A DNA stretch of 64,000 bases, the filler included, from Dimargaris cristalligena (taxonomy: Eukaryota): NCBI GenBank assembly GCA_003614675.1. It is 11 parts of 11 records of this genome, joined end to end, with 100 filler letters (N's around TTAATTAATTAA, not from the genome) between each part and the next. Parts side by side here need not be neighbours in the genome. Positions count along the whole stretch, not along the records: positions 23,488 to 29,237 come from ML003584.1; 10 more parts are not named here. The stretch is one strand, 5' to 3'. Shown one piece after another: positions 5,794 through 58,481 of this stretch. Below the pieces are notes generated by a model, which saw nothing but the letters and a program-made list of their open reading frames with translations, made no database searches and was not told the DNA's origin. Position 1 is the stretch's first letter, and each line of letters starts with the position of its first letter. Made by a program: the position numbers and the translations under genes.

Positions 5794-5893
5794 NNNNNNN
5801 NNNNNNNNNNNNNNNNNNNNNNNNNNNNNNNNNNNNNTTAATTAATTAANNNNNNNNNNNNNNNNNNNNNNNNNNNNNNNNNNNNNNNNNNNN
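5794..5893. other. Artificial contig-joining spacer (44 N + TTAATTAATTAA + 44 N); first of ten
   Basis: The same 100-nt spacer with stops in all six frames occurs at 5794-5893, 11668-11767, 17535-17634, 23388-23487, 29238-29337, 35076-35175, 40908-41007, 46739-46838, 52570-52669 and 58381-58480. The intervening contigs never increase in length (5774, 5767, 5753, 5750, 5738, 5732, 5731, 5731, 5711 bp). Confidence 0.98.
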
Positions 5894-11667: not shown

Positions 11668-11767
11668 NNNNNNNNNNNNNNNNNNNNNNNNNNNNNNNNN
11701 NNNNNNNNNNNTTAATTAATTAANNNNNNNNNNNNNNNNNNNNNNNNNNNNNNNNNNNNNNNNNNNN

Positions 11768-12831
11768 ATGGGGAACCCGGGGGCCAGAGTGAGTCGGCCA
11801 TTCAAATCATAGGCACATTGCCCTTCCGTATGGGAAGTGCACAGGCATTCGTGGGTAGACGAAAGACCATCGCAGTTATGGGGACATTGGCATCCCAGGG
11901 CCGTACTTGGGTCGGGGGGCGTAATAGTCGGTCCGATGATGGACTTGTCAATATAGGTGAAGGTCAGCGGTGGACCATCGTCGTCCACCTCGTTAACCAC
12001 GGAAATGGGTGGTCCCTTGGCGTGCGAGATGGCATCCAGGAACCGCCTAATGTTGGGCTTCATTCGGACCACGTCAATGGATTCGGAGTGAAGCCCCCGA
12101 CGGAGGCGCTGGCCCCGCTTGGCCGGGGCCACGGTCTTTCTAATCCCTGCTGCGGGGTTCTGGGGGATTTCCTGTTTAAGGGGTAGCCAGGGAGTATCGG
12201 TTGCCGCGGGTGGTTGAGCTTTCGGGGTTGAGGCCGAAGGTTGGACCGGAACTGGCTCCGGGTGAGTAACGGGGGGTGAAGCTAAAAGCGGTGGGCTAGG
12301 TGTCGTTGTAGGTGTGGAGTTGCTTGCCAAAAACTTATCTAGAGTACTCTTAAGAGTTGGCTTGACCGGGGGTGACGACTTGTTCAACGACCGGTAGTAT
12401 TGGCGGACCAAAGACGTGCAGTTCAGGTTATTGCGAGGCTCCCAGGTATTCCACTCCTCGGTGTACCCTTTCCACTTAATAAGGTATTCGACGGTCCCGC
12501 GCACCCTCCGATGGTTGACAATGCTCTCAACCTCGTACAGTTCTTCTTCTTCCTCCGGGGCAGCCTCGGAAGCCGCCGTAGTGTGTTCGGTAGGTTTCGC
12601 AGGGGATACAGAATCGACAGCATTGGTCACTGGGTTCTCGACTAAGGTCGGTGCTGGAGACGCGGCCGGGGAGGAGGAAACTAAAGGTAAGGAGTACGAG
12701 TCGGCGATATCCATGGCCATTGATAGGCTAGGGGTTGGTAGAGACGGGCAATTTTCTTGGAGGGAACAAGGGAGCTGTATCGGCTCCGTCCAGAGTACTT
12801 GTTCCGTCTTTAAATCAGGACTGACCATTGT
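11768..12831 (-). CDS. clr4: Clr4/SUV39H-type histone H3K9 methyltransferase, 5' part (chromodomain + pre-SET); SET domain cut off by contig end
   Basis: Chromodomain YEVESIVNHRRVRGTVEYLIKWKGYTEEWNTWEPRNNL and pre-SET ISVVNEVD..FTYI..GCQC..C..CLC..CAY. A TACTAAC branch point (~12888-12894) and CAG acceptor precede 12831. A possible ATG-only first exon lies at 13224-13226, followed by GTAAGT. Confidence 0.88.
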
Positions 12832-14837
12832 CTGTGGGGTGTTGCAGGGGGTGTCAAACAGATGGGTATTAAAAAGACACAATACGGGTTAGTATGCAGT
12901 TTCTTTATTCAATGGGTATTTAATGCGCCTGGTCAGAGGGGGGACCACGCCGAATGAGTATAGTGCGTCTTTGAGCAGTCGCCTGAATGAAAAGAGCCAC
13001 AATGGAACCAAGTAATCTGAGAGCCTCCGGGTTTACTATGTATGCTAATTTGGCGGTTCCGATTTTCATGACCAGACATGGGTAAACATTCAACAGCAAG
13101 AGCCTCAGGGCACTAGTTAACGGAAAGGCAAATCAACCCCTCGGTGGTTCAAGTAATAAGTGCCTAGCATTCGAGGCAATAGGATACACCAGGAGCAGGG
13201 CACTCGGCGATAGTTACACTTACCATTGTTTAAAAGAGTGGCGAAGAGTCAGGTTTGGGGGTTGTGCTTAGAGTACTCTGAGAAGTCCGCGCCAATTAAG
13301 AAGGGCCGATTGGAAAGTATTGTACAATCAGAAGGAGCAAGTATCCGCGAAGACGAGCAACGGTGGTGGAAAGGCAAAGATAAATGCAGAGTGAGGGGAT
13401 ATTTCCACCTGTCCAGGAAGCAAGGTGAAACGGTAGCCAGTTGTAATTCAGCTTAGGGAAGTTTACAAGTAAAGAGATTCACTAAATATTATAGTGCGAA
13501 AATGGGGTGGGGGGGTCAAACTTTATGATTATTCAATGGCTTCGGAGGCTAAACCCATGAACTAAGCTTCAGGGTGTCAGAGCTGAGAATAGAGGACTAT
13601 AGCGAATTGTGGTTAGGAAAAGGGCAGTGTCACTGAAGAGTGTTTTTCAAAAAAGAAAATGGGTTTCACCTAAAGGACGTATAGGTGATATGGACAGAAC
13701 TAAGGCCTGGTAGTCCAATAAGGCCAAAGTAAAAGAGAGACTGGTAAGTAAGTGGAGGGTCAGAGAAGAAGGAGTAGGATAGCCTTGGTTAAAGCTTACT
13801 GGGTAATGTTAAACAAAGCCTCATTCCAGATTTACAAAGGGGCATGTAACTGAGAATGGTTGGAGATCCCCAAAGGATGAATGTAAAGTACATACCAAGT
13901 AGGTATCAGATAAACTGATAGTAAACTCTAGTGGTGATACTGTTTTCTATTAGGGCAGAAGGATGGGGAGTTTTCATATAGACAGGTGTAAAGTAGTATG
14001 GGATATGGTGTATCTATTAACTATGTGTGTAAGAGTACTTTAGATGGTTGGGATAGCAATGGGATGTGGCATAATACTTTTGGGAGCAATAAAAATTACT
14101 TGGCAATAGGGTGGATTAATGATTTACCCTATATTCCCCTGCAAGTGGAAGTAACTTGTGACCAACGGCGTGCAAAAGTAGGTGATATTTTTACATTATC
14201 ACATGACCTTCCTTCCCGGTCATTGGCCAATGATTATTTCCGATTCTCCCATACCATGGGACTAAACATCGACAATCCAATCATCTATTGCCCTGGTGGT
14301 CCATATTTTTTTTTTTCTACTGGTATAACATACCTCTTATTCCTAGGGTCATCAATGGGAAAATATTTCAAAAAATCCACTACATTTTAACCCATCGGGC
14401 TTAATAAAAATAAAAAATGTAATATATTTTATATAAATGACGTCATTAAGCCAATATTCCTAAAGTAATTTTTTTAATAAAACCCAATTTTATTTAGCTA
14501 TTGCAACCAGGAGAGGCTTCCCCTGCCCATAGGATGGAGGCCAATCTCCTCCATAGCAACTCCTCCCCAAGTAAGGAAGACCTGCAGGACTATGGTGGAG
14601 ACAGCCTGACCCCCCCAATAGAGGAGGACATCCTCCCCCCAACAGCACAAGAGCAGTACCTCATCCAAGAGGAATAAAACAAATTACCCCAAGTGGCTAA
14701 CTATTATTCTTTGTCTTAGAAATAAATACTTACTTTATATTTAAATGCATTCAGTCATGCTTATCTACCTACCCTACTTAGCCCACCTGGTTATACTATA
14801 GTAGGCTAGAGTTATTTTTTTATAGTTTAACTTATAG

Positions 14838-15168
14838 TGTTGCCTGGGTTAACCACACTTAGTCCATCAAGAGTCCCAAGGATAGACTTCTTATAGTAGA
14901 TGAAGCTCAGGCTCAGCCAAGCAGGTCACTATTATTAGGTACAGATATAGTACTAACTAATAAAGGCTTCAAATGCAGTTATAGACAAGGGGCATGCAGC
15001 AGGCACACTTACAAGTTAATACAGGGGCAGTGAGCATATATAGGGCTTATTAGGGTAAACCAGGGGGTAAGAATAAGCTAAAGAATCTAACTAGTCCCAA
15101 TGGGGGCCTGGTTATATATATACAGGGGCAACTCCAGAGATAGGCCCCAGGGGAAGGGTATTACTAAG
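14838..15168 (-). mobile_element. LTR family A, partial copy (3' half), reverse orientation
   Basis: Begins TGTTGCCTGGGTTAACCACACTTAGTCCATCAAGAGTCCCAAGG, matching the other family A copies. It is truncated where the next copy begins. Confidence 0.85.
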
Positions 15169-15891
15169 TGTCGGCCTTCCTAATCTGACTTAATCCAGTC
15201 CTAATGATTGCCCATCCTTATTAGGCCTTATAGTACTATATGGGAGAAGTTCATCCAAGCTATATAACAAAAAATCCATTAGATTTGGCTAATATTACTA
15301 GTTAAAAATAAAATTCCCATATATTCTCCCATACATATATAATGTAAACCCTTATATAGCTGGGCTGAATTTTACCCATATTAACCCTCCCATAGTCACC
15401 CCTGGTACTATGGGTCATCATTTATTATATAACCCTGCCCATTGTGACCCCAACACTTTGCACCCCAAATACTCCACTTGCTGATCCAAGTCTCTTCCAG
15501 TTCCCATGAGAGTCTTCCTGATGCAAAGCCATCTGGTCAGGCCCTTTACTTATCCACACCTTAGCCTTAGTCATATTCCCCTTGGGACCTCCCTCTGGAA
15601 CCATCCCTGCATATATAACTGGGCCCTACTGGGATTGGTTCAATTCCTTAGCTTATTCCTACCCCTTAGTTTACCTCAATAAACTCTATATATGCTCACC
15701 CCCCCTTGTACTAACTAGTAAGTGTGCCTGCTGTATGTCCCTGATATTTACCTGCATCTGTCCTTTATTGGTTAGTACTATGCCCCCATCCTAATGCTAG
15801 TAGCCCACTTGGCTGAGTCTAAGCCCCACCTACTATTGGAAGTCTATCCTTGGGACTCTTGATGGACTAAGAGTGGTTAACCCAGGTGATA
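15169..15891 (+). mobile_element. LTR family A, solo LTR with an internal insertion of roughly 140 bp
   Basis: Starts TGTCGGCCTTCCTAATCTG, contains ATATATAAC (TATA-like) then AATAAA, and ends GGTTAACCCAGGTGATA (terminal CA mutated to TA). Confidence 0.8.
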
Positions 15892-19214: not shown

Positions 19215-21965
19215 TTATGGGCCAATGGGCTTGTCAACTACGGTCGGCATATCGGATAGGCTGCCCGCCTGGGTCTTGGCCCACATTTCGGCATAAATGC
19301 CGCCCTTGGCCACTAGTTCATTATGTGTGCCAAGTTCGGCCACCCTACCGTGACCCAGGACCACAATCTGGTCGGCATCCATGATCGTCGAAATTCTATG
19401 GGCGATTATGACAGTCGTTCGCGACTCCTTAGAGTTACGAATGTAGTCCATGATCTTCGTTTCGGTGGCGGTATCCAGGGCTGCCGTGGCCTCATCCAAA
19501 AGTAAGATGGGTGACTTTTTTACCAGGGCCCGCGCAATTCCCATGCGCTGCAGCTCGCCACCGCTCATCTTGTTGCCACTCTTATCGAGTTTGGCGTCAA
19601 AGCCATCCTCGCGCCCCATGATGGTGTCATATAGGTTAACGGCTTTGGCCGCCTCCACCACCTCATCTTTGGATGCCAACTCGCCAAGGCTGACAGCACC
19701 ATAGGCGATGTTGTAATAGATAGTACCCGGGAAGGCCACGAAGGATTGGTTGACGTACGCGATCTGGGAGCGTAAGTCACCCTGTGCCACTCGGCGAATA
19801 TCCTGACCATCGATGAGGATGGCTCCGTCCGCTACGTCCACCATGCGCATGGCCAGACTGAACAAGGTCGATTTACCTTGCCCACTCATGCCTACAATAG
19901 CCGTGGTACGTCCAGCCGGAATAGTGAAGTTGATATCGCGTAAGATCGGAGCCTGGTCGTCGTAGGAGAACGATACGTTGCGGAATTCAATGGTTCCCCC
20001 AATTTTAAGATCAAGTGAAGGAGCCCCGGCATCATCCTGAAGGTCGGGCGTCTCATGGATCGTCTTCACCGTGCTTGCATCGCGACTGGATGGTCGGAGG
20101 CGCATGGTAAACATCCAGGCCAAGTGGGCGGCCTGACCACTAATCGATTCATAAGCTTCAATCGCAATGATACACTCGGCGAAGGATAAGTCGCCGGACT
20201 GGACCTTCCAGGCGCACATTCCTAACCAGGGGTAGTAAAAGATAATAGGAAGGTTTTGATTCCAAAAATCCGCCTCCTTGGCAAAGGCCGCCTTCAGTCG
20301 AAGATAGACGGGTATATTTTGGGCCAGTTGTTGGTGTTCATACTTCTCGCTATTGAGTAGTTTGAATAGCAAAGTTCTGCACAGTCGATCCTCAATCCCC
20401 CATTCTAACCCGTAGTTGTTAATACTCCACGGCAGGGAGTCAGCTTCTAGGATAATACGGCAGTAGTAGAAGGCCAGGGTGTTAACGATAAAATACACAA
20501 TGACAAAAACCAATGCCTCGGGCCCGATACTTTGCCAAATACTGGCCATCACAAGGTACGTAGCGGCCCAGCGTCCAATGAATTTGGTTATATCGCTACG
20601 CAATGAGGTGGCAAATTCCACGTAGTCGTCAAGGGCAATTTCGGCTTGACTGATGGCCGTGGAAGATTGTTGATGCAGGTGTTGAATACGGTTGTAGGTT
20701 CGGTGTTTCCATTCAGAACGTACATTCCGACTAAGCCAGGTCTCCAGGTGCGTAAACAAGCCAGGGAGGATATTGCTAATTACTTGGCTGGGGAGATAGT
20801 AGTAGCATAAGTAACTGTGGACCGTGACTATTTGGGTCAGTACGCTATCGCGGAAGTCGCGGTTGGCTATGAACTCAATGTGTGTGGCCCCAACCCGCGC
20901 CAGAGCCACGCCTAGTATTACCAGGGTGCCGACGTTGACCTTCCAGTCGAAAAACAGGTGGTAGAGCAAGGCCGGGTACGTCCTAACTTCGCGATTGAAA
21001 AACCAAGGTTCAGAGGCACTGTGATTAGTATCTTCCTCGACCTTATCCTCGTCCTGAAAACGAATACGAGCACTAAAAACTGTGTAAAGTAGGTCAGCCA
21101 TTCCTCTTCCCATTTCATCAATCTCAAATTTTCTTTTGAGGGCTTTGGAGGAATCCCAAGTTATACCAAATAGCTGGTGGGGGGTTGCGGGGTTATCAGC
21201 AGAATCCAAGACACGGATATTGGAGAAATTGCGGAAAATGGGTTGGGTAAACCAGTCGGGAATCCGGGCGAGCAGCCACATGAGACCAACATCAAGAATA
21301 GGGACCATATGGCGGCGGTGGTACTGAGTTTGGTAACAGGTAGTGATGATTAGAGGAATGTAATAGACCATGGCTTGGCCTAATACTATCATCGTAGAGA
21401 GGGATGGTTGGTCACAGTGCCAATACAGGAAGGCCACAATACTTAGCTCGATGAATGCTAAACTGGCGTGGGTATACCAAAACCGAAGATGGGCCGAGCT
21501 ACGCAGACTCAGGCGGTAGAGCCACAGGGCCTGGTCGGGGTGAGAGGCTGGTCGCGAGCTCCGGCGGGATAGAACAAAATAGGACCAGGCAGCTGCCAAA
21601 ACAAAGCTTCGGATAGCACCGAAAGTTAGCGGGGCATATATTACTTCAGAACCAGTTTCCTTGCTCGTCCACATTAGCACTGTAACCATAATAAAGACGG
21701 CCAGGACTTGAAAACCAATGATGGAATTTGTGGCTATGCGTTGCAAATTTTCGAGGCGGACATTGATGGCTAGTTGCTGATCCTTCGTGGCCGTGGGGTA
21801 CGATTCACATTTGAAATATTTGGGCACACTGGATGCCGGTCTATAGGCGGGGCCTTGTTGGAACCGCAGGAACTGGACCAGGTAGGCCACGGTGAGAATG
21901 GCCGTGATACTGGGCCACATAATGACTTGTAGGGGGAACATGGTCCCCATAGTTTCGAAATCCAT
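19215..21965 (-). CDS. Half-size ABCB transporter, HMT1/ABCB6-like layout (N-terminal TM extension + divergent TMD + NBD), 916 aa
   Basis: IEFRNVSFSY, Walker A GMSGQGKST, Q-loop YVNQ, signature MSGGELQR, Walker B LLLDEATAALD, H-loop IAHR. Many hydrophobic segments lie in the N-terminal ~620 aa. The ORF is uninterrupted. Confidence 0.9.
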   Translation of the reverse strand: MDFETMGTMFPLQVIMWPSITAILTVAYLVQFLRFQQGPAYRPASSVPKYFKCESYPTATKDQQLAINVRLENLQRIATNSIIGFQVLAVFIMVTVLMWTSKETGSEVIYAPLTFGAIRSFVLAAAWSYFVLSRRSSRPASHPDQALWLYRLSLRSSAHLRFWYTHASLAFIELSIVAFLYWHCDQPSLSTMIVLGQAMVYYIPLIITTCYQTQYHRRHMVPILDVGLMWLLARIPDWFTQPIFRNFSNIRVLDSADNPATPHQLFGITWDSSKALKRKFEIDEMGRGMADLLYTVFSARIRFQDEDKVEEDTNHSASEPWFFNREVRTYPALLYHLFFDWKVNVGTLVILGVALARVGATHIEFIANRDFRDSVLTQIVTVHSYLCYYYLPSQVISNILPGLFTHLETWLSRNVRSEWKHRTYNRIQHLHQQSSTAISQAEIALDDYVEFATSLRSDITKFIGRWAATYLVMASIWQSIGPEALVFVIVYFIVNTLAFYYCRIILEADSLPWSINNYGLEWGIEDRLCRTLLFKLLNSEKYEHQQLAQNIPVYLRLKAAFAKEADFWNQNLPIIFYYPWLGMCAWKVQSGDLSFAECIIAIEAYESISGQAAHLAWMFTMRLRPSSRDASTVKTIHETPDLQDDAGAPSLDLKIGGTIEFRNVSFSYDDQAPILRDINFTIPAGRTTAIVGMSGQGKSTLFSLAMRMVDVADGAILIDGQDIRRVAQGDLRSQIAYVNQSFVAFPGTIYYNIAYGAVSLGELASKDEVVEAAKAVNLYDTIMGREDGFDAKLDKSGNKMSGGELQRMGIARALVKKSPILLLDEATAALDTATETKIMDYIRNSKESRTTVIIAHRISTIMDADQIVVLGHGRVAELGTHNELVAKGGIYAEMWAKTQAGSLSDMPTVVDKPIGP

Positions 21966-23121
21966 GACGCGGGGCGGAGTGGGATAAACGAGTGAGCTTA
22001 GAAGAAAAGGGTATGTATAAAAATATGTAACTTATGAAAGGAATAGGGAACGCAAAAGGTAAAGGTGAGAGTGCTAAACTTGGGGTCAAATACTTAAGAG
22101 GGTAGAGGTAATGTGGTGTTCATATGGTATTCGATAAGGATTCCCTTGTGGGGGCGGCTGCAAGGGCATATATAGCGAAAAATGAACCCGTATCTCCTCC
22201 TAACATAACTTTAGTATTTTTGTACTTCTCGGCAAGGATTTCCCACTAACGGGTTCTAATATTACTACAGCTTATCTTCGTACTTTACAGATAGAATAAT
22301 CGCTTAGGTGAAAGTGAAAGACATGTTGAATTTTGTTTTGACGAATGTTAATTGGAAAGAAGATTTTGAACATCCATATACAGAAGGCATACAATTTGTG
22401 AATATTCATTATTTTAGCTATGACATTGAAATGGTACGAATATATTATGGCAATTTTCTTTTGGCCCGCTGTTTTATTCCTAACAGTGGCTAATCAGTAT
22501 AATGAATTACAATAATAACAGTTGCATACTTATAATCCGGATTTAGAATGGCCGTGGCGCATTTCCCTTTTGACTCTCATCCATTATTAAGCATTTTTCA
22601 AAACACGGGCTTTACTTCAATGTCAAAGCCACGCTCCTTTCATCGACGACCGTTCGCATGGCTACTTCGCATATTCCTAGTATAATCATCGGTGGCAAGG
22701 TGAATTCGATTGGATTACATGCCTGTAATTACGATAACTCTATATTTCTTCTTTCATGGCATCCATGAATGCACCGCGGAACTTGGTGATAATAAATTCG
22801 ATCGTTGTGGGCATCTTTACATGTACTCTTCTACAGCGTGGATATGAAAGACATTTACCAGTTGAACACACCTTTGAATATAATGGGGCCGAAAGCACTG
22901 GTGGGGTTCCAACTCTTATTCATGAATGTGACCCGTTAAAAAAAGCAATACATTGTACAATGTCTTTAAAATTTCCTCGCTAGGGCACTGTATTGTGACA
23001 TTTAATGAGACCACTTATGGCTTCGGCAAGTTGACCCATTTCTTTGTTAGTTATGAATGATGGTTAGGGAAAACCTATTGTGGTCTTCATATCCCATCTA
23101 CTTAATCTGGTGCATACAACT

Positions 23122-23387
23122 TGTCACCCGGGTTAACCACCCTTAGTCTGTTAAGAGTCCTGGGGATAGGCTTCTAATGGTAGGAGGGCTTAGGCTCAAC
23201 CAAGCAGGTTACTAGCATTAGGGAGGGGCGCGGTACTAACCAATATAGGGTGAGTGTAGGCTAATGCAAGGGACATGCAGTGGGCACACTTACTGGCTAA
23301 TATGATGGGTGAGTATATAGTGAGTTTATTGAGGTAAACTATGGGGGTAAGGAATAAGCTAAGGAACTGAACTGGTCCCAGAGGGGC
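23122..23387 (-). mobile_element. LTR family A, partial copy at contig end
   Basis: TGTCACCCGGGTTAACCACCCTTAGTCTGTTAAGAGTCC... aligns by eye with the other copies. Confidence 0.88.
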
Positions 23388-26300
23388 NNNNNNNNNNNNN
23401 NNNNNNNNNNNNNNNNNNNNNNNNNNNNNNNTTAATTAATTAANNNNNNNNNNNNNNNNNNNNNNNNNNNNNNNNNNNNNNNNNNNNATTCTTCTCCTGC
23501 CCCTTGAGTTGGGATATAACCCCAACCATTCCCCCACAGCTTACTCTTTAGCTTGTAACTCCTCTTTTGTTTTCCCTTTTTAATATCTAGTCTAATAAAC
23601 CTATTTTCCATCCTTTGAAGTCCTGTCCATCTTATGGTACCTGGTCTTACTTATAGCCCATCATAACACATCCAGCCTTGAGATGGGATAGAGAGTTGGG
23701 TAGTTGCTATCCTAAAACTGTCTATAAAATGACCAGAACACCAATGGGGAGGAAGAGGGACAGACAAATGTTGACAGTGTTCAGTAAGGGAAACATGGTT
23801 TGGTTAGGGTAACCTAGAGTAACTTCAATGTGACATCGTCAGCTTTCAGGTGGCTTGCTGGAGTCCGATGTGGAAGTTATTGGGCACCCTTTGAAAGAGG
23901 GGGAGGGGGTCCACTTTCCTAGAATTATGAAAAGTATTATTTTTGTACAACAGTCATGTTCAGAATAACAATAGTGCCTCCATTGGGTTTCACAATTGGC
24001 CATGTATTCAGTGCACCAATGTATGATATATTATTAAAACAAGATGGCATTGAAGTGTTGGACATATTATCTCTATGGACGATGGATAGGTGGGTATGGA
24101 TATAGGCCCGAGGGAATTGTTAAATGGTTGGGCAGATCACCCCACCATCACTTATAATTCGGCCATATCGAATGGCAACAGTTTATTGGCTTTACAGGGG
24201 TTTTTTCAGGGATATTGTTATTTCGAATATAAATAATGGCCAGATTATATATAACAAGAGCAACTATAAAATCAGTATTGTGAAAAATAAAAAACTACTG
24301 GAAATAAGGGGTAATCTTATAGTAGCTAGAAATAGATTGCCTGTAGAGTATTGTAAAATCAACCTGTGGCCAATATCAATAATAGCTTGGATGTATATAG
24401 ATTCACTAATCTGGATTTCACCCTGATTACATTATGGGCCAGAGTTTTTAACCAAGAATGTGGCCTAATAGCATTTCTCATTCTTGGTAAATTGGCAGCT
24501 ATGAGATCGCTGTAATCCGGGCCATAATAATAGCAGGCTTAATCGCAGTTAGTAAAAAAGAAATGTTAAGTTCGACTCAGTACTGACACTGTACTTTAAG
24601 TGACCATAGAGCTCCACTCATCTATAAACCTTACCAGACCACGCTAACCAATCCTAAAGTGGTCAGAGCCATGGGTATCCTTCAAACAAAGCGGGACACA
24701 ACCCCTCGCGAATTTACTACATCTAGCTATAATTTCTATATCGGATGGCCCATCTTAAAAACAATATATAGCCATATATTACCCGGAAAGTCCTATGCAT
24801 GGGGTGTATTGCCGTTGAATATTTTTGGCACTATTGTACCAACACAGTTCGATAAAGTACTGCCTTTCATCTAAAGTGTATAGGATAATATATAATGAAA
24901 CACCCCTGTACCACCTCTTGCCAGTGCCCGCCTGGGCTCTTCTGTTGGTGTCTGTTTAACCATTATCCAGCTGAGGAGACTGTAACCACTGGGTTGGAAG
25001 GGTGCTGGTTACTAAAAGTATATATTCGCCTGGCCTGATTGGCCCCCATAGCGTATGCAGTGGTAGATGGACTAGATGTTCAATGGTATAGTTGGTTTAT
25101 TTAATGCTCCAATTAGACTCCTATCGGCTATCTGTTTAGATAATGAGAAGTAAAGAAAGTAGCAGAGTCGGTATTTTTTAATCGTTCGCTGTCGCATACT
25201 ATCGTTGGGTAGGCCCAGCGACGCTGGCTAGCTCAGTTGAATAAAAATTACTTTACCTATATCAGTTCTTAGTGGTAATGGAGGCGTGCATGACTCGGGA
25301 CCCCTTCCCTTCCTTCTGTCCTTCTAGATTTCTTCTGTATCATCTACTAACAGGGCTGGCCTTTGTCCCCTTGACTCGGAAAGAATTGCAGTTAAACATA
25401 TCCCTAATTCTTCAGGAACTTAAAAACCTTTAGTATCCGTGTTATCAATTTCTGCCCTTGCCTTTTATTTTTTCATATTTAATCTGTCCTATTATGAGTG
25501 GATTATTTTATATATAAAAACCTATTATGTAGGTCAAGTCCGGCATATCCCGCCAAATCCAAAAGTAGAAGTGATGGTGGATACCCCGTTTTTAATGGAT
25601 TCCCCTAATTATGCGCCCAGGTGCCTCTCCCTCCCAAGGGACCTATTCGCTCTGTGGCTAGTGTTGGGGGTGTCTTCGATTTGTGCCTAATTAGGTCGTT
25701 TACGAGAGGCCCAGGCACTGAATATGCCACCATATATTACTTATACCACAGTGGCTTGATCATAGTGCCCATAGAATCCAATCGCTGGCGAGCGACTGCA
25801 GCGCCTCCGTTGCCCTATTTTTCCAAAATTATTTTAAACTGGGCACTGTATCTCCCCAATAGCCAAGCAGTTATTTTCAGAGGGATTAAGTAGTCATACT
25901 CCTGTCATACCACTGGACATTCGATGGAAGCATCCATGTTATGGTTTGTGTGAGTTTGAACAACAATGAAATGAACCTGTGGAACCAACGCTCCACGCCT
26001 CTTTCAAAGATCGACAGTCGGTGATATGAGAGATAGGGATCTGTATGGACCACACCCTAATATCAACTGCCCCATAATTTCCAATACTTTTCGAGCTCGG
26101 TAATTAGGGGTTATAATGCGTGTAACGATAATATGCGACAATTTTGTTCGGCTGCTTTTTCTTCAAATTGTTTTTCTTAATGTCTGCATCTAGGAATTAG
26201 ACCCCGACCTTGCCTATAAAAACAGGTCAATTGTCCTCGTTTTAATAGTCGCCACACGGCTTAGCATCTCCTGAACCTTTTCATTGAAGATTTTGTGAGC

Positions 26301-26428: not shown

Positions 26429-28128
26429 ATGAAGATTATTGTGTCTACCCTCTCGTATCTCTGGATGGCCCAATTGGCCATGGTTATGGCCAGCCCCGTA
26501 CTCACCCCTCTTGACAACCAGGAAACTCCGTCCACCCAAGAAAATCAACAACAGATGCCCCCAATGGTCCGCACTTCTCCTCCCCTTAGAGGTTCGCTCG
26601 ATCGGCTTCCCCGCGAAACTATGTTGAATATCGTGGGTCATACTGACGACAACACACTTCCGGTGTTTCTGGAAATTTCGCGTGGTATCAATCAAGTGGT
26701 CCAGGCCAGTATTGCCTATCGAAACAAAATGGTAAGTTGTGATGAGGGAAGGCCATTGCTGGCAATATGCTCCAACTAATTATACAGCACAATTTTTTAC
26801 TTTTGGAAGGATGTGGGTCGAATTTACCTATATCGTATTACTAAGCCTCCGACTGCCGCGAAAATCGTGTTTCCACTCCCGTCGTCGTTGGAATATATTA
26901 GCGGCAGATCTGGCTAGATTCATTCCGCTGTGATATAGACTACCGCTATCTGTAAGAGTCATTCCCGTCCAAGTCTTCATCTAAATCTAATCCCTCGCCT
27001 ACCACTATTTATATTTCCACTTGGATTACCAACCCTGTTTAGATGAGACTCCGTCTTCCCACCGTAAGCAACTATGGCCAAGAGTATGATGATCTTGCTC
27101 AAAGTGAAAAGGACTACTTGATCGACTTGTTCAAGTTCGAGTTCAACCTTGACCACTACTCATTTGGTGACCCCACTGATTTTACCCTGGAGCAAATAGC
27201 CAAAAGTTACCGGGAACAGCCCTTATCTGAAATAACTTCGGCCATAGAGGCCTATGTCGAGGCTGAGCTAATGGCGGAGAAACGTTGGAGGGTGGTGGAG
27301 TTTTTGGCGCTCACCCCTGACCAAATGTATGCCATATCACCGATGATGGGCCTGGTGGTCGACGGCAATATCGATCTAGTGCTGGCCCTCCAAAGTCGCC
27401 TGGCGAGCTACTGTGGCTCTACACCATTCATGGCCGCGTTTAACGAGGCCTGGGCACCGGCCACACACCAGTTGTTTGTAGCAGCGGAAACAGCCTACGG
27501 TATCCAAGAAGGTTTTGAGTGTACGGCCCACGGCTTTGTAGTGGTCCAACTTGCCACTCTTTTCATCCTAGCCTCCTTACAAAAATGGGAAGCCCTGATT
27601 GAGTTCCTCGCAAAAACCGAGAATATGTCAGGGGTTATCGACTGGAGTCAAACTATATTGGGATTCATGCTCATGTTCGAAAATGGGGTCGATCCCTTGA
27701 CCTTTGGGTACTATCAAAATTTGCCGACAGAACCCTCCTTTATTCGCCATATCCAGCTGTGTGCCGACAAATATCAATTTACCCGCACCCATACTGAAGC
27801 CGCTATTCAATGGGATACTATTCAACAGGACTTTCCGGAAGCCCTCCAATTGAACTCCTCGATTGACAAATGCCCTTTCGATTTTCTGGGTCACAAAATC
27901 CGATATGACGTCACCAAAAACAGCGTGGCCTTTGTCGTGGATGAGGATGTTATGAAAGGCGTGTTGGGTAATCGACCTTTCGTAAAGAGTGGGGAGGGTG
28001 TCTTGGCCGAGCCCATTCCTGAGGTCCTGACCAGTAGCTACAATGCTCGCGATATGCAGTTCGCTCTAGATTCCGTTGAAATGGACAGAGATATCGAACA
28101 CATTAAACTTGTCAGAGACCTGGATTAG
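26429..28128 (+). CDS. Predicted secreted protein (~462 aa) with N-terminal F-box-like motif; join(26429..26731,27043..28128)
   Basis: Signal-peptide-like MKIIVSTLSYLWMAQLAMVMA-SP, followed by SLDRLPRETMLNIVGHTDDNTLPVFLEISRGINQVV. A GTAAGT donor at 26732 and TTTAG acceptor ending at 27042 join in phase 0 to the 361-codon ORF. TATAAAA lies at ~26215. Confidence 0.72.
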
Positions 28129-28826
28129 AAAACCAAACCCGAGGAAACTTAATGGCCTTGGAGTTTCTCTAATATCGAGTAATTGCAATCATGTTTGGTT
28201 TTCGACCTCTCTACGGTCGGTAGGATTGATTTACTTTACCCCGTTCCCTACATTAGACATATAAATGGCGGTGAAGCTCCTGTGGCATTGAAGGGACTTT
28301 CAGTGTAGCTGAATATTAGTGCGCGATCACTATAGCTCAATGTATCACCTTATTTATTTTATATATCGACACAATAGGACTACTTTGGGTTACATACATT
28401 TTACAGCTATACTATATATTTTTTTTATATTTCACGGAAAAAACCCAGTGCTTCAAAAAATGGCTGTTAATTCTGGGTATATGATGCAACCCTCGCTATT
28501 GTTTATTATTTCTACTTTTATTTATAAAATTTTGGTTCCATACCTAATGCCAGAACTGTGAGTCCGAAATACGCATAAAATATTATCTATTTTCCAATAC
28601 TGTTGTGCATGTTTGTAGATTAAAGGCCTAACCCCCTTTCACTGGGGAGCAATTAATTGATAATCCTCAGCAATATTCTACCCATTGAGGGGTGATGAAG
28701 GGCGATTTCTGTAAAGATATCTTTAAAGGTACTTGATTCTCATTTATCAGTCATATTATACCAACAGTATGTATTTCAGGCATAGCTAATTACTGTGATT
28801 CAATGATAGAGTCTCTCATTTTGACT

Positions 28827-28920
28827 GTATATTTCAATCAGTACCAATAACCAAATAAAAGGGAAGACAGCAGCTAGAGAACAGTAGGCACCTCTAGGAG
28901 GCTAGTTGTATTGAATAGTA
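28827..28920 (-). repeat. Dispersed repeat family B (LTR-end-like), copy 1
   Basis: GAAGACAGCAGCTAGAGAACAGTAGGCACCTCTAGGAGGCTAGTTGTATTGA closely matches 63908-63960. A weaker match lies near 16110-16140. Confidence 0.65.
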
Positions 28921-29164: not shown

Positions 29165-29237
29165 TATAAAGCCTAGGTTAACCACTCTTAGTCCATCAAG
29201 AGTCCCAAGGATAGGCTTCTAATGGTAGATGGGGCTT
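29165..29237 (-). mobile_element. LTR family A, short end fragment at contig end
   Basis: GGTTAACCACTCTTAGTCCATCAAGAGTCCCAAGGATAGGCTTC core shared with the other copies. Confidence 0.85.
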
Positions 29238-29337
29238 NNNNNNNNNNNNNNNNNNNNNNNNNNNNNNNNNNNNNNNNNNNNTTAATTAATTAANNNNNNN
29301 NNNNNNNNNNNNNNNNNNNNNNNNNNNNNNNNNNNNN

Positions 29338-29392
29338 ATCTATCTTTTCAAATAAAGTTCAGTTTTCAAGGATTTGATTTCAGTTCTTTACA
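29338..29392 (+). repeat. Terminus of a young repeat (family C, probable LTR 3' end) abutting the Gypsy RT
   Basis: Exact reverse complement of 46684-46738. Contains AATAAA and ends ...CTTTACA. The flanks differ at the two loci. Confidence 0.85.
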
Positions 29393-31971
29393 AATTGTGG
29401 ACCCAGCTGGATGATTATCTACAAAAGGGGTGGATTCAACCGGGATCCTCACCCTGGGGGGCGCCTGTTATCTTTGTCCCTAAAAAAGATGGGACACGTC
29501 GCATGTGTATTGATTATCGTGTGTTAAACACCAAGACTATTAAGAATCGGTACCCTCTACCACACATGGATGAAACCTTTGCCTGTCTTGCGGGATCTAA
29601 ATTCTTTTCCAAAATTGATTTAAAATTGGGCTATCACCAAATTCGCATTCATCCTCCTGATGTTCCCAAGACTGCCCTGAATACTCGATATGGGCAGTTT
29701 GAATTCTTGGTTATGCCTTTTGGGCTCACCAATGCGCCAGCGACTTTTCAAACCCTTATGAATGGGATTCTACATCCCTTCTTGGACAAATTTGCGATGG
29801 TTTACCTGGACGATATCCTTATTTATAGCCCTACTGAGGAAAGTCATCAAAATCATTTACGGCAAGTCTTACAATTGTTGGAAAAACATCACTTATATGC
29901 TAATCTATCAAAATGTGTCTTTGGGCAATCGTCTTTGGAATATTTAGGTCATATTATTTCTTCTAGTGGTGTTAGTGTTGACCCACGTAAGATTCAAGCC
30001 ATGCAGAATTTCCCTACACCTAATAGTATTAAGGCCCTGCAATCTTTTTTAGGTTTAACTAACTACTATAGGCGATTTATTAGCCATTATTCAGACACTG
30101 TTGCTCCTTTAACCAGTGCCCTACGTAATAAGCCCAAAGAACTAACCTGGACTATAGAATGTCAAAAGGCTTTTGAAACCCTTCGCCACCAACTTACTTG
30201 TACCCCAGTGCTAATTTACCCTGATTTTTCTCAAACCTTTGAAATTTTTACTGATGCTTCGGCTACTGCACTGGGGGCTGTATTGATGCAGGACCAGGGT
30301 TTGGGCTTACAACCCATTGCCTATGAGTCCAAAAAATTAACTGGTCCAGAATCTCGTTATGCGGCTCATGAACTTGAACTGTATGCCATTATTTATACCC
30401 TAACTACTTAGCGCCATTTTATCCATGGTCAAAAATTTACCATTCATTCAGACCATAAGGGGCTACAGTTTCTTAAACATACTGCTAAACTCCCTTTACG
30501 TTTACATCATTGGTTGGAGATGCTTCTTGAATTTGATCCCAACATTGAATATCTTCCGGGAACCCAGCAGTTGGTAGCGGATACTCTTTCCCGCTGCCAT
30601 GAGCCTAATCCCACTTTGAATATGGTGACTGAGCAATTGTCTCTTACCATTGATGATCTACCTGCTAATTGGATTGATCACATGCGCTCTTTATTACACC
30701 ATGAACCATTACCTACTGAACTTACTCCTCAAGTGCAACAACTATTGGAGCAAGAACGGGTTCATTGCTACTGGGATGACCATACTAACTCACTTTGCCG
30801 ATTGATTGATAATAATCAAGTCCCATACATTTCCCCTAATGATCGGCAATGCCAGTTACACCAGTATCATGATAATTTCGGCCATGAGGGCTATCAAGCT
30901 ACCTATCACCGGATGAAATCCCGAGTTTGGTGGCCCCAATTATTAAGTGCTGTTCGGCGCTTTGTTCGAGAATGTCCCCGCTGTCAAATTGACCGCCGGT
31001 CCTATCCTATTACTTGAGTTAAACCTACACCATTAGTGCCTGTCTTACAGCCCCTGGATATGTGGGGCATGGATTTTGTTGGCCCCCTGGTAAATTCCCG
31101 CCGAAATAATCGCTATCTGATAACTGTGATTGATCATGCCACTGGTTTTCCACTAGCGCGGGTGATTCCGGAGATTACTGCTGAAGCGGCCATTGCATTT
31201 CTTAGAGAAGAATTAATTCCTGTATTTGGATTACCACGCCAAATCTTAACTGACCGTGGTGCTCAATTCACTGGTAATGATTTCCAGGATTATTTACAGT
31301 CCCTAAACATCCATCATCTCTTAACATCGGCTTATCACCCTGCTACTAATGGGCAGGTAGAACGTTGCCATGCTGAAATCAAAGGAGGCATTCGTCAACA
31401 AAACACTGGGCCCCGACGCAATTGGGATGACTTTCTTCCCACTGTGCTATTAGCCATTCGCACCCGAAGCTCTCGTATTACTAATAGTACCCCCTTTGAA
31501 TTAATGTATGGACGACCTCCCCGAGTTCCTGGAGACCGATTATTACCACCTTTGGAGGAACATGCCTCATACATTACCCCAGAAACACATCAACAACGCA
31601 TCCATAAGGTCAATACACAACGTCAACGGGTCTACCAGAGTCATCAGAAATACCGTTTACAAGTTCGCCATAAGTTCTGGGCCAGCCGCCCAAAAACACG
31701 GCAATATCAGGTAAATGAGGCTGTACTGGTTCATGATTATACAGCGCGCTCTCTCCAACCACGATGGTTTGGACCATTTCGAATTCACCAGGTGTTACGA
31801 TGGAACACTTATCAACTCATAGCTCCAAATGGACGTCTCAGTCCGGCCCCTATTCATGTATCTCGTTTGAAACCAGCGATAGTGACGGCTGCGAATTTTC
31901 GGGCCTGGCATTTGCCACCCCGTTATAATCGCACCCTGGAGGAGGGTGGTATTGTGGCCGGACTAGCATGA
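29393..31971 (+). pseudogene. pol: Gypsy pol, single reading frame broken by two in-frame stops
   Basis: The three called ORFs share one frame. TAG at 30409-30411 replaces the conserved Trp of WRH (TGG->TAG). TGA at 31015-31017 probably derives from CGA. Confidence 0.9.
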
Positions 31972-35815: not shown

Positions 35816-38800
35816 TCAGGGAGACGTGGAGGAAGGCGAAGTAAGCTGAGACTGGTCGGTTGCGCGGGTGGCCTGGAACACTTCGTGGACCAATTCCATT
35901 GGCAAATGCTGCATGACCAAGGCATCTACCTGACACTGGTGCTGGCGGGGCGGGAGGAGTTGTTGTTGGTCTCGCAACACGGCCACCACATCTTCTTCCA
36001 GCACGGTGGTGCGGTCGGCCCGGTCTGTGTGGCGCACGATATCCCTGGCCACTTGTTGGAAAAACGCGTGGGATGCGTCCGTTAGGGCCGAAACCAGCTC
36101 CGGGGGTACCCGCGTTTGCCGGGTCACTGACCGGAAAAGGTCCCGCAGGAAAGTTGCTGGGAGGGCGGGGATGGGTCGTCCGAATTCGGAGAAACGCGCG
36201 GGCGCACGGCGGGGCGCGGTACGGCGAGGAGGGGGGGAGGCTTTACCGGTCCGGTCGCGTCCCAATGGGCGGGGCAATGGAGGAAGTCCCGCGGTGGCCG
36301 TCAGGCGGGGTGGGAGAGGGTCTTTTTGGCCATCCGTCAGATCAGGGGCCGGTGAAGATAACGGCAAAGGTGAACGTGAACGCGAAGGTGAAGCGGGCTG
36401 CCCGGTCGGGGTCCCTGCATCGGTCAGTTGGTCGAGTGCCATGGTGTCGGGAAACTCAAAAACGGATACGGCACGGGCTGGAGGGGTTTCGGCGGAGCCC
36501 GCTCCATGCGCCGATACATGAGTAGGACTGTCGAATGAGTCTAGCGGTCTATATTACAGGGGGAGTGGTACATTGGATGGAAGGTAAATTCCGGGTTAAT
36601 TGAGGCATAAGCAACGGCAGTATCAATCCCAGGCAATGCTATATGATATCAGTATAAAGGCCGGTGTTATTTGTCATTGGATTATAAAATAACGAGTAGA
36701 AGTGCAAGCTAGTGTGGTATATATATATTACCTGATTGGTTCGTCCATCGATGCAGGTTCGGGGTTGTTGGTTGTCGCTGACGGGCGTGAATTGGCTATC
36801 ATTGGCGATTCACTGTCCTCCTCGCCGGTAAGGGGGTACTCGGACATATTGGCCGGCGAAAACTCGGGATTAAAATCAATTTGGCTAAAATCCCGTTCGG
36901 CTAATATAGCCCCGGGGGTAAATTGAATACTGTGCATAGACATTCGTTCATCCAGGCGTCGTCGCCGGGAGGCATCGGCCGTGTCAAATTCCTCAAACGT
37001 CACCTCATAATCTAAGTCAGGGCCCAAGTTCAAACCATCACCATCATCATTATCGCCACTGCCACCGTCAGCTCCTTTAGTAGGGAGTCGGTAGTCGAGC
37101 CCCGGAAGGGGGTCATAGGAACGTCCAGGGGACTGGGTATGGGCCATTATAATCCCAGGACTTTCATTGTTAGTGGCCGGGGTGGGGAGCTGAGCAGGAG
37201 AGTCGGGTTTGGACCCAAGAGGAGTAGCCGCAGTGGTGATGTGGGGGGAGGAGCTGGTCGGGGTGGTGTTGGTAGATGATAGAGCCATTGGTAATAATAC
37301 TGAAAGCGGTACTGAAGATTGGCCGGTGGTGGAGGCGTCCATGGATGGATCGAGCATACTCTCCGCATTGAAAAAACTGAGTTCTTCGGTGGAACCGAGG
37401 CTGAATCGACTATACCGGCTGAAGGCCGACGCCGTTGATGGTCGGGTGCCGCGCGAGGAGGACTGGGCCCGCCGGTTGGGGGTGAGTTTGCTGTTGGTAC
37501 TGGCCGACGGGTCCGGGGAATCTAAGTCCAAGTCGGGATACTCCAATTCAAACTCCGAATACCGACCGGCGGGGGCACGGCGCCGATTTTCAGTGGCCGG
37601 CAGTAAACGAGCCCCTGTAGGAGGTAGAAACGAGCGACTGGCTCGCCAGGGGGTGGCAGAAGTGGCCCCCGCAGTGGTGGTAGTAGATGGGACAGGAAGA
37701 GGAGCAGAATCACTATTAAGAGTATTACTACTACCCTGGTCTTCGCTTTCCTCGCCGAAGGCTACACTGGAGGTCGAATAGCGAGAGGTCGGACCCCGGT
37801 GGTTAGTTTTGGGGGCCTGGGTCACAACCGGGAGTTTCTGGGGAGTGGTGGGACGATTCGATGGAACGCGGGACAGGAGACGGAGGAGTCCCTGGGGGGT
37901 CTCTTCAGCATTAGGGGCCGAAAGGCCCGTTGGGGGTGGTTGCCCCGGGGTGGGCTGTGGAGTAGTACCGGCGCGGTACATTTGGGTCACGGACCGCGTC
38001 CGTTGGACCGCCTGGGACGATAACCGACTACGAAGAAGCCGTATATGGTTCGACGCCGGGGGAAGCGGGGCATTGGGTTTAGATGTTGTATTGGTTAACC
38101 GGCCGGGAGTGCGTGGGCCCCCGATAGTAGGGCGTGCGGCCGAGCGGAGAATTGTTTTAAGGTTCGCGTCGTTGGTAGTCCGGGGCCGGGTCTGGGGGGT
38201 ATGCGAGGTCTGAGGGCCACCCGGGGTCTGCTTAGGTGGGGGCGGAGTTCTATAGTTGTCCCCCTCCTTCGCGGGAGGCGTTTGGATGGCCGCTGGGCTG
38301 TTCTCAGCGGGGTGTTCTTTCACTAATGTTTCCGATAGGGACTTGAGGAGAGTAGACGGAGTGTGACTGAACGCTCGTTTGGTGCTGGATTCGGAGTTGA
38401 GGCGAACAACGACCGAACTGCGATCGTTGGGGTCGATTTCCATCGTGGGTTGAAGGTTAGTAGGTGACGAATGGGTACGCCCCACAATGGGTGATTCAGC
38501 CGATTGGGGTATCGACGGCTTGGGCCGAGTTGAATCGGTCCCATTTTCCGTATTATTCCGTTCCGCGTCGCGAAGGTTTTCCAGGGGCGTTTGCACTGTA
38601 AATACGGTCGACTGGGCTGGCCGACGGGTACTACGGGGGGTCGAGGGGGTTTTCATAGCCAACGCCCAATGGGGCTGTTTAGGGCGGCCAGTTGTTGGCA
38701 CCGGGTCCATGGGTACACTGGTCTGGTTGGGGGCTGCCCGCCGGGTGGAAGCAGCGGTAGCTGGACCAGGCGCCCGGGTTTGTGCCAGTCGATTCAGGAC

Positions 38801-40907: not shown

Positions 40908-41007
40908 NNNNNNNNNNNNNNNNNNNNNNNNNNNNNNNNNNNNNNNNNNNNTTAATTAATTAANNNNNNNNNNNNNNNNNNNNNNNNNNNNNNNNNNNNN
41001 NNNNNNN

Positions 41008-44000
41008 CACCCCCACTGCCACCACTACCGTTGTAGCTAGAATTTGACCGCTGAAACGGGGCCGCTTTCTTCGTCATAAGCTGACTGGAGCTCGAGGACC
41101 GCAGCAAGTCGCGGTAGGACCGATCACCCGCCCGGCTATTCCCGGAGAAGTGGCGAGGGCGGTCGGTCGTCTGGCTGGCGGATGGTTTCTCGGACTCGGG
41201 AGGGTACGACGACATGAAATACGACGATAGCGTCGAAAACAGGGATCCATCCGCTTCCTCGTCAGTGGACTGGTTCGGCCCATTTTCCCGACCCGCCAGC
41301 TGGTCGGCCTTGTCCAGGTAAATTTGACTGTATTCCCCGGAGCGGAATAGGTCATCGGTAGTGGGGTCAGGAAAATAGGCTAAGCCATCGCTGGAGTGGA
41401 GGGTCACGGGCAAATGGGTCGGGTACAGTCGATCCGGTAGAGCCGCCCAGCGGACCCGGAGACGGTCTTCGGCCATGATGGCCGCGGAGGGTTCAAAATG
41501 AAACGAGGGACGCCGGCTATTCGCCAGAGGGCTCAGTGCAAGTGAGCGTGGGGTAAGCCCAGTAGCAGGAGGGGAGCATGCACCGGCATTGGGACTAGGG
41601 CTGCGGGATGCGACAGGGATATCCAGGGTCAGAGTACCCGAGGGGTGCAAGGTAAAGAACGTGCCTTCGAGAAGATCGGCGCAGGCCAAACTGAGGACCG
41701 TACGCCAAATGAGGGTCCAGCCGGCGGTGATGTACTGGGGGACCCAGCGGGCTAGTCCCAACATGAAAATCAGAGCTACTTGACCTCGGTAATCCCGACC
41801 TAGCTGGAGGGACAGGTCGGTCAATACCAGGGTGGAGGGTTCCGCGGACAGCTGGTCAGCCGAGGAAACCCACGGATCCGACGTAGAAGGTGGGCGCTTA
41901 GGGGTTTTGGCCAGTGCCTCCGGAGACGGGTCCGCAGAGGGGTTCGCAATCACCACTGGTTGGAGTAGATTGGTTTGGGAATAGTCCTCCAATACACCCG
42001 CAATGGTGCACAAATGGCTGACGAGTTCTTCGATACAACCGGGCACTTGGTATTGGACGGCAAGCTGGGCACAGAGATAAAGACCGGTGAGGGCTGACCG
42101 CAGCATCTCGTCATCGGAGCATTTCAATAGCACCTGGGAAAAATTCATAAGCAGCCGGCGGTAGCTGAGCGCAAAGAGTAACCCGTCGAGTGTGGTAGGT
42201 CGAAGTGTAGCCAACAGCTCCCCACTGGACGAGCTCACCGAGTCTAGCTCTGACCGACCGGGGGTATGAAGGCCCTCCCAGACCTCGTCAAAGCGATCTA
42301 CCCGATCGTGCTCTTCGGGGATAATAATTTCCTTGCGCCGAATGCCATCGAAAACGGCCTCCAGATACTCCGACGAGAAGTTCTGCCCAGCGTTGACGCC
42401 CCGCAGGTTGCGGCAAAAGTCGTCCAGTTTCATGCGCGTTTTAACTTGGGGACTATGTTGGTCGGTATTAAGCATGATCGATGCGTAGGAGAGGACAAAC
42501 GCCGCATCGGGGTTAGCTACTTCCGGAGTGGGCCCACTACCGTCTTCGGAAACAAGCTGACTGTCTCCCTCTAGCTGAGACTGGCAGTAACGTTCGGCAA
42601 AGGTTTCCACCACCCGTTCAATCTGCTGGGATTCACCGGGGATACGGAACTGGGTCAGGAGGATTCGAAGCGCTTCGTCCAGTCGCAGACCTTGGAAATC
42701 AAATAAGTTGATGTAGGCCCGGAGGACGGGCAAATGTTTGGGCCGTGATAGATAGTCACCCAGCAGGGCCTTGTTCAGGGAGGGTGTGTGGCGAAGGAAC
42801 AGGGCTAATCGTAACACCTGGGCCTCGTCTAAGTTCTCCGGAGCAAACGTGGGCGGGTCGGAGCCTTCGGACGAGGGAGGATCTTTCGAGTTTGACGGGG
42901 GAAGGAACCCCACTTCCGCAAGAAAACGGATACCCTGTTTGGGGTTGTGGTTAAACAACGCCGCTGCAAAAAGGAGTGTAGTCTTTTGGGTCTGGGCACC
43001 CAGCAACTGCTCCAATGCCATTGCTTCACCTTCGGGGAGCGGATACGGGTGGGGCTGGCGGGGATCGGCCGGAAGCGTACCGTCAGGGGAAGTAGTGGAA
43101 GGCGGGTGGAGTAGCGCCACGAGTGACGTCCAAGAATCCGGCTGATTGGGTGCGTTGGCTTCAGCACGGGCCACCATGGCCTGCAATATGGCCGTTAGTT
43201 TTTGGGTACACACCTGGCTTTCCTCGCGGAAAGCAGCATTCCACTGGTCCGGATTGGCCGAGTATATTTGTAACAGATGGGCACTTTGTTTTTGGAACGC
43301 GTACACTGGGGCCGGGGGCTGTGTACCAGCCCAGGATGGGGGAGATGGCATTGTTGCCGAGGTTTCGGGAACGAGTCGGCCCTTTTCGGGGGCTGGAGAA
43401 AGGGAGTCTGGTGGAGGAGCCTTTCTCAGCGAACGCATTAGATCGACCTCGATATGGGGCAACGAATGCTGACAAAGGAACGACAGGTACATTTCCCACA
43501 GATTGCCCGTATACAGGTCCGAGTCAAAAAGAACCCATAGGTCACTAATGATAGCCGGATCCTCCGTAATGTTGGTCAACTGGTCGAGAGCGCGGCAAAA
43601 TAGGAGACGGTGCTGTGGGGTAGGTAGGGGGCGTACCCGCTGAAGGACCACAGACGGGAAGTGATTACCAGCCAGCGAATAGCGAAAGTGTGGGATAACA
43701 TCGCGCTGGCGTTTCAAAAGAGGAGCCAGCTGGCCTTCGAATAGCTCGTTCAGCTGAGTGGCTTCCACGGCGAGGTTGGGGAGACTGGTGTTCCCCAGCT
43801 GAGTATCTAGTGCGGGATGGGACAGTCGGGCTAGAAACAGCGCGAAGAACGTTTGGAAATATTCCTTGTGAATCCGGCGGAACTGTGGCAAAATGTTGGT
43901 GACCAGTCTAAGAGCGGTGGCCATTAGGGGCAGGAAATCGGTCTCCGCAATTTGGTACAAATATTTTAGAAGATCGTTGGCGATCTGGGTCTGGAAGCTG

Positions 44001-58380: not shown

Positions 58381-58481
58381 NNNNNNNNNNNNNNNNNNNN
58401 NNNNNNNNNNNNNNNNNNNNNNNNTTAATTAATTAANNNNNNNNNNNNNNNNNNNNNNNNNNNNNNNNNNNNNNNNNNNNA

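Follow-up and report, generated by a model that had tools for sequence, protein, structure and literature searches.

We analyzed a gene on the plus strand of a 64,000-nucleotide (nt) stretch of Dimargaris cristalligena DNA (the window; coordinates refer to its whole length). Judged from its sequence and its homologues, it is an expressed-type two-exon gene encoding a member of a protein family restricted to the Dimargaritales. Its translated product of 462 amino acids (aa) begins with a signal-peptide-like segment, followed by a linker, a segment resembling an F-box and a large helical C-terminal domain (Table 1). The protein is a good candidate for an effector that mimics an F-box protein, with splicing, secretion, delivery and Skp1 binding all predicted. 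In the reading that we prefer, to which we give a probability of roughly 0.4, the protein would enter the secretory pathway by its cleavable N-terminal signal peptide, be released at the haustorial interface and arrive in the cytosol of a mucoralean host. There the divergent F-box (residues ~56-95) would dock onto the C-terminal helices of host Skp1, and the 361-aa helical domain would be the part of the hijacked SCF (Skp1-cullin-F-box) ubiquitin ligase that receives the substrates.

The initial annotation had proposed the two-exon structure and its intron, and sequence and comparison bear out both as a prediction. The GTAAGT donor at 26732 is perfect and the TTTAG acceptor at 27038-27042 is pyrimidine-rich; they bound a phase 0 intron with a GC content of 42.8%, compared with 49.1% in the coding sequence. 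Unspliced read-through of exon 1 meets an in-frame stop at 26777-26779. The TAG of the acceptor is in frame with exon 2 and closes its open reading frame (ORF) upstream, so that 27043 is the earliest position at which this frame can be joined. The product corresponds to the NCBI hypothetical protein H4R33_004516 of D. cristalligena (P0003), the sole difference being Ala442 here in place of Val; therefore the gene model is the same one that was chosen by the annotation pipeline. When the family members were aligned to the window with tblastn, the alignments of exon 1 stopped at 26731-26737, except those of P0133 (26767) and P0005 (26617), and those of exon 2 began at 27043-27067. Seven proteins of Tieghemiomyces and the paralogue P0004 align over the exon junction without a gap. 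Opposite the initial Met of exon 2 the Tieghemiomyces proteins have a different residue, which means that in that genus the helical domain does not exist as a protein by itself. An independent DNA run from another study (X5) yielded a contig over 25000-28920 in which the gene is intact. It differs from the window at 13 positions: two lie in the coding sequence, a synonymous G>A at 27699 (Leu320) and a C>T at 28064 that changes Ala442 to Val, and the other 11 fall within 28150-28857, leaving exon 1 and the intron free of differences. Short diverged contigs in the runs X1, X4 and X5 match conserved parts of exon 2 and appear to represent paralogues in the same genomes.

Relatives of the protein were sought with a HMMER pass over 1.84 billion cluster representatives (E<=0.001), followed by a profile search of the 5.8-billion set. 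The first search returned 6 proteins, all of them at E<=1e-10, and the second added 2 further members. Including cluster members, the family comprises 11 proteins, all from Dimargaris or Tieghemiomyces; neither search found a member outside the Dimargaritales, and tblastn found no second copy of the gene in the window. Four members belong to D. cristalligena, namely P0003 itself, P0004 (76% identical), P0133 (53%) and P0005 (57%). The other seven are from Tieghemiomyces parasiticus (P0006, P0010, P0007, P0011, P0008, P0009 and P0132) and are 20-29% identical. Some of the Tieghemiomyces pairs may be alleles, because 66% of the BUSCOs in the Tieghemiomyces assembly are reported as duplicated (PMC9866270). 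P0132 and P0007 lie at a distance of five locus tags on one 48-kb contig, a hint that the family is locally clustered. Two Tieghemiomyces members, P0009 (876 aa) and P0132 (934 aa), carry acidic, Ser-rich tails in which a unit of about 60 residues is present in two to three copies. The search for paralogues with a signal peptide and an LPxE motif had been suggested as a check; what turned up is a lineage-restricted family in which 9 of the 11 members have a signal-peptide-like start and 9 of the 11 the whole F-box-like segment. The same architecture in 11 proteins of two genera is, on this comparison, more than chance. The Dimargaritales, which include both genera, are described as haustorial mycoparasites of the Kickxellomycotina (PMC3734964). 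The closest records being those of D. cristalligena, the guess that the DNA came from such a parasite was correct.

The N-terminus was scored with a simple heuristic script of our own, which looks for an N-terminal positive charge, an uncharged run of at least 13 residues and a -3/-1 cleavage site. The window protein has K2, 26 uncharged residues in a row (3-28) and, behind A21, only one -3/-1 site, between VMA and SP, in agreement with the signal peptide originally noted; the P/Q/T-rich stretch reported behind it is likewise present in the translation. The following 15 residues are acidic, with a net charge of -3. All three properties were found in 9 of the 11 members. The first residues of P0010 resemble the last part of a signal and run into SPVLT, with which the mature Dimargaris proteins open; the start of P0010 has probably been mis-called, leaving it N-terminally truncated. 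The N-termini of the Dimargaris proteins and of the P0007 and P0008 types are unlike in sequence (about 5 of 21 residues identical); what is conserved across the two genera, as far as prediction goes, is the signal peptide as a property and not as a sequence. In P0008, P0009 and P0132 from Tieghemiomyces the core has only 13 uncharged residues before a charge. Such cores are too short for a membrane span and would suit cleavage of the signal better than anchoring in a membrane, and the neutral-to-acidic flank behind the core favours a C-terminus on the outside. Within Dimargaris, the paralogues P0005 and P0133 are identical to the window protein at 32 of the 42 positions of the leader (residues 1-42), compared with about 51-54% identity in the mature domain. 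A leader more conserved than the mature protein would be an effector-like trait.

The F-box-like segment carries L60, P61, E63, I68, L77, I83, S84, R85, I87 and V90 within residues 60-91. Its Tieghemiomyces counterpart, CP.EI.L.IM....D...M.RFLE[VLI][ST][RH], has the same spacing with no insertions or deletions. Across the genera the pattern reads L/C-P-x-E, then I, M/L and [LVI]-[ST]-[RH]-x-[ILM] at fixed distances, and the whole segment is present in 9 of the 11 members. We take the spacing of the hydrophobic positions, compared by eye, to be that of a canonical F-box; the length of about 40 residues, the LPxE and the conserved hydrophobic positions are all there. UniRef names P0004 and P0132 'F-box domain-containing', although the method behind the name was not seen, and the language-model neighbours include an ascomycete 'F-box domain-containing' cluster at a score of 0.90, which has the level of a lead. 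As to the F-box pattern on which the initial annotation was built, the quoted string is indeed present in the protein, its fit to the pattern being one made by eye, and it is matched by no F-box family of Pfam.

To model the interaction, residues 48-140 were predicted in complex with a fungal-type Skp1 in three runs, without alignments. The Skp1 was a metagenomic stand-in (an ORF from L064) found by means of a Skp1 motif, and not a Mucorales protein; an ORF of metagenome L028, used as a query for a Mucorales Skp1, turned out to be arthropod-like. The interface score ipSAE reached 0.68, 0.68 and 0.66, compared with 0.36, 0.25 and 0.00 for the controls. Of 78 solved complexes 51 attain the mark set by the tool, as do 2 of 108 mismatched pairs; the tool rates the present result as one that supports binding but does not show it. 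The runs share at least 72% of their contacts, with a predicted local distance difference test score (pLDDT) of the partner of at least 61 (61-63). Residues 54-88 lie on residue 80 and residues 94-157 of Skp1, i.e., on its C-terminal helices, and the tightest contacts are made by I68 and I83/S84, positions of the conserved motif. The modelling with Skp1 recommended at the outset thus passed its controls with a canonical interface; the partner, however, was not the Mucorales Skp1 that had been called for. SCF complexes have been solved many times, and for this reason the pass is to be read as likeness to such complexes rather than as binding. The segment is probably a structurally genuine F-box, and we lean, somewhat less firmly, towards binding to Skp1 in life.

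The remaining 361 aa had not been recognised by the initial annotation, and they did not match any family in Pfam-A (hmmscan) here either. Folded alone from an alignment of 11 sequences, this domain gave a mean pLDDT of 79.9 and a predicted TM-score (pTM) of 0.80, and apart from two short pairs of strands the model consists of helices throughout. Foldseek found no match at E<=0.001 for the whole model in PDB and BFVD, nor for the exon-2 domain alone in PDB. With VIA-align the whole model reached a Z of 5.6 at best, within the stated background for helical models. For the exon-2 domain the best Z was 6.2, with Wolbachia CinB (145 aligned residues, root-mean-square deviation 4.7), and matches of the TPR/PPR kind had Z values of about 5-5.7, all at background level. 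For residues 102-462, every neighbour found by the language model is an ankyrin cluster (0.79-0.86). An ankyrin reading was not adopted: the language-model scores of 0.79-0.91 have lead level only, Pfam Ank was absent at E<=10, and the fold searches returned no ankyrin chain above background. The model is best described as a helical domain without a recognised relative, which is not proof of a new fold, and the domain is presumed to be the substrate-binding part.

Several observations weigh against an F-box-mimic effector. With Pfam-A hmmscan, no F-box family matched any of the 11 members, at a threshold of E<=1 for P0132 and P0133 and of E<=10 for the other nine, nor either of the exon products (P0001, P0002; E<=10), and the HMMER check that had been suggested for the spliced protein accordingly came out negative. 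A sequence search of PDB with the family profile, P0003, P0006 and P0007 (E<=10) gave no F-box protein. In the AlphaFold2 monomer, built from a nine-sequence alignment, pLDDT is below 50 for residues 1-75 and about 46-49 for residues 76-110, and helices appear there only at 76-90 and 96-102. As annotated, P0005 has the conserved leader fused straight to the helical domain, with no F-box-like segment, and P0133 lacks the final third of the segment and keeps the first two thirds; this may be either a genuine loss of the F-box or a differing donor choice by the annotator. The complex model may have passed because the predictor remembers SCF structures that were already solved, and the best control scored 0.36. 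Finally, P0006 as annotated has no signal peptide or hydrophobic N-terminus. The matches that the PDB search did return (a phage tail protein, PCNA, SdhE and others) all had E>=0.13 and were rejected as chance. The best of them for the family profile, YgfY/SdhE (E=0.13, 14.1 bits), spans profile positions 86-152, a conserved EYDxLSxxEK stretch just past the F-box-like segment (window 26690-27180, residues ~88-150); it is below significance, and membership in the SdhE/Sdh5 family was not adopted.

These points leave room for a protein that is secreted while its segment does not bind Skp1, being either an N-terminal helical module peculiar to the family or a relic that has decayed. It would then act through its helical domain outside the host cytosol, e.g., in the extrahaustorial space or in the parasite's own wall or secretory pathway. 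The signal-peptide-like start of nine members suits this explanation, as do the Pfam and PDB results, the low AlphaFold confidence over the segment and the two paralogues that dispense with all or part of it. The modelled Skp1-contact positions, however, are conserved between the two genera, the complex score of 0.68 stands against 0.36 for the best control, and two members bear F-box names in UniRef; we hold this explanation to be somewhat less likely than the preferred one. F-box proteins normally act within the cell that produces them, and the protein could also belong to the parasite's own SCF ligases and act on the parasite's own proteins. The hydrophobic N-terminus would in this case be unused or serve as a membrane anchor in the endoplasmic reticulum or another organelle, with the F-box facing the parasite's own cytosol. 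The N-terminus of P0006 would be in line with this, the 26 uncharged residues of the Dimargaris core are compatible with a membrane span, and the docking model suits the parasite's own Skp1 as well as that of a host. The charge pattern, with a positive N-terminal end and an acidic or neutral flank, favours instead a C-terminus in the lumen or outside, the 13 uncharged residues followed by a -3/-1 site in three Tieghemiomyces members are typical of cleaved signals, and the family is absent from all other fungi among the 1.84 billion representatives. We consider an endogenous F-box protein improbable. A wrong gene model, finally, would mean that exon 1 (a 116-aa ORF running to the stop at 26777-26779) and exon 2 are separate genes, or that exon 1 is a relic, and no single protein would join the signal peptide, the F-box-like segment and the helical domain. 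Exon 2 does open with an ATG (27043) immediately past an in-frame stop, and the last 50 bases of the intron contain no CTRAY branch motif, the single match lying 56 nt before the acceptor. Against this stand the splice sites and their phase, the tblastn boundaries, the gap-free alignments with a residue other than Met in Tieghemiomyces, and the identical junction in H4R33_004516. This comparative support for the junction is good; since the homologues are all predicted proteins themselves, a very slight chance is left for a wrong model.

The closest working analogue of an F-box-mimic effector of this kind would be SSGP-71 of the Hessian fly, Mayetiola destructor. SSGP-71 proteins are described as a multigene family of effectors with a signal peptide, an N-terminal F-box and a protein-binding C-terminus of leucine-rich repeats (LRRs); by way of the F-box they bind Skp1-like proteins of wheat and imitate an E3 ligase of the host, and some members are without it (PMC7330099, PMC4617103). 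Both families come from eukaryotic parasites, combine a signal peptide with an F-box or F-box-like segment and a C-terminal domain, and have members without the F-box, P0005 and P0133 lacking all or part of the segment here. SSGP-71 acts from insect to plant, whereas transfer from fungus to fungus is proposed here, and its LRR C-terminus and recognised cyclin-like F-box differ from the helical domain of the Dimargaritales proteins and from their F-box-like segment, which is too divergent for Pfam. No LRR family was found in the Dimargaritales proteins by Pfam at E<=10 and the model is all-helical; no sequence relationship to SSGP-71 was found, and the likeness is one of functional analogy only.

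Bacterial F-box effectors are reported to recruit host Skp1 in such a way that a domain chosen by the parasite decides which proteins of the host are ubiquitinated (PMC4617103). Legionella AnkB and LegU1, Ralstonia RipG/GALA and Agrobacterium VirF share this strategy with the proposed mechanism; they are delivered by type III or IV systems and carry ankyrin or LRR partner domains, whereas the Dimargaritales proteins have a predicted eukaryotic signal peptide and, by Pfam, neither domain. Ordinary F-box proteins of the fungal cytosol or nucleus (PF00646, PF12937) likewise have an LPxE motif of about 40 residues in front of a substrate-binding domain, and the segment studied here is modelled on the same C-terminal helices of Skp1. 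They lack a signal peptide and are found by Pfam, in contrast to the present family with Pfam matches in 0 and signal-peptide-like starts in 9 of 11 members. As far as the models indicate, the family would work like an F-box mimic; its membership in the F-box family is unproven, and because Pfam finds no LRR or ankyrin domain it does not belong to the SSGP-71 or the bacterial sets. Calling such effectors an undescribed kind was too strong, since signal peptides joined to F-boxes are already known from SSGP-71 (PMC7330099, PMC4617103). Our literature searches did not find a published description of the Dimargaritales family. F-box proteins are not mentioned in the available parts of papers on mycoparasite effectors and zygomycete secretomes, the supplements of which may include the family in predicted secretomes.

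In the description from which we started, the gene stood alone in a contig otherwise made of decayed repeats. This does not hold for the window, which also contains two stretches of non-ribosomal peptide synthetase (NRPS) modules and genes for an ABC transporter, a Sec7 protein, ABCE1 and chromatin proteins (Table 1). Only about 22-36 kb round the gene are poor in genes, with relics of Ty3-type elements and 66-nt repeats. The Ty3/gypsy-type pol just downstream of the gene is broken by in-frame stops at 30409-30411 and 31015-31017 and is a decayed retroelement. The 66-nt repeats, 73-92% alike, occur on either side of the gene (14842-14907, 23126-23191 and 29171-29236, and inverted at 15821-15886) and are probably pieces of one transposon or long terminal repeat. 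Such a gene-poor setting with transposon relics is an effector-like trait. The two NRPS stretches fit the richness in NRPS genes that is reported for the Dimargaritales (PMC9866270). The chromodomain/Pre-SET and CENP-T-like ORFs are ordinary chromatin genes near the repeat-rich stretch. N runs of 44 bases occur as ten pairs, with 12 bases between the two runs of a pair, and recur about every 5,840 bases between 5794 and 58480 (e.g., 29238-29281 and 29294-29337), and one N run of 117 bases lies at 57178-57294; several long ORFs stop at N runs. Spaced so regularly, the runs look like the product of masking or of the way the window was prepared, and not like gaps in the assembly.

Table 1. Position, strand and basis of the features of the gene and its surroundings in the 64,000-nt window.
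Feature	Position	Strand	Basis
Possible TATA box (TATAAA), 209 nt upstream of the ATG	26215..26220	+	sequence reading, putative
Exon 1, 101 codons, ATG at 26429, ends ...NKM; signal-peptide-like segment, P/Q/T-rich linker, F-box-like segment	26429..26731	+	translation
Signal-peptide-like segment, residues 1-21 (MK, hydrophobic core, VMA/SP)	26429..26491	+	heuristic scan
P/Q/T/S-rich linker, residues 22-55; residues 22-42 kept among Dimargaris paralogues	26492..26593	+	alignment
F-box-like segment, residues 56-95 (LPxE ... I ... L ... ISR.I..V)	26594..26713	+	conservation, interface of Skp1 model
Intron, 311 nt, phase 0, GTAAGT...TTTAG	26732..27042	+	sequence reading, homologue alignments
Exon 2, 361-aa all-helical C-terminal domain (coding 27043-28125) and TAG stop (28126-28128)	27043..28128	+	translation, AlphaFold
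NRPS modules (condensation, AMP-binding, PP-binding)	5842-10878	-	domain matches
Chromodomain + Pre-SET ORF, piece of a SUV39/Clr4-like histone methyltransferase	11716-12888	-	
ABC transporter	19215-22031	-	
Ty3/gypsy-type pol (reverse transcriptase, RNase H, integrase zinc finger and core), one frame	29356-31971	+	
CENP-T-like histone-fold ORF	35816-36553	-	
Sec7 guanine nucleotide exchange factor	40952-45508	-	
ABCE1	48161-50113	-	
NRPS modules (condensation, AMP-binding, PP-binding)	58437-62216	+	domain matches

The means by which biotrophic mycoparasites control their fungal hosts are, to our knowledge, hardly understood at all. The proteins might represent the first family of cytoplasmic effectors passed from one fungus to another, i.e., haustorial F-box mimics that engage host Skp1 and expose host proteins to proteasomal turnover by way of a new helical receptor, although we hold this broadest claim to be doubtful. 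If it is true, fungi would have invented independently the strategy known from SSGP-71 and the bacterial F-box effectors, and F-box mimicry would have a third independent origin, after bacteria/viruses and the gall midge. The confidently modelled helical domain without known relative would then be a new type of substrate receptor, and proteins in which an export signal is coupled to a motif for Skp1 docking would give experiments a definite point of attack on how one fungus manipulates another as its biotrophic host. Should the F-box be non-functional, the proteins would still constitute a lineage-specific family, predicted to be secreted, of two parasitic genera.

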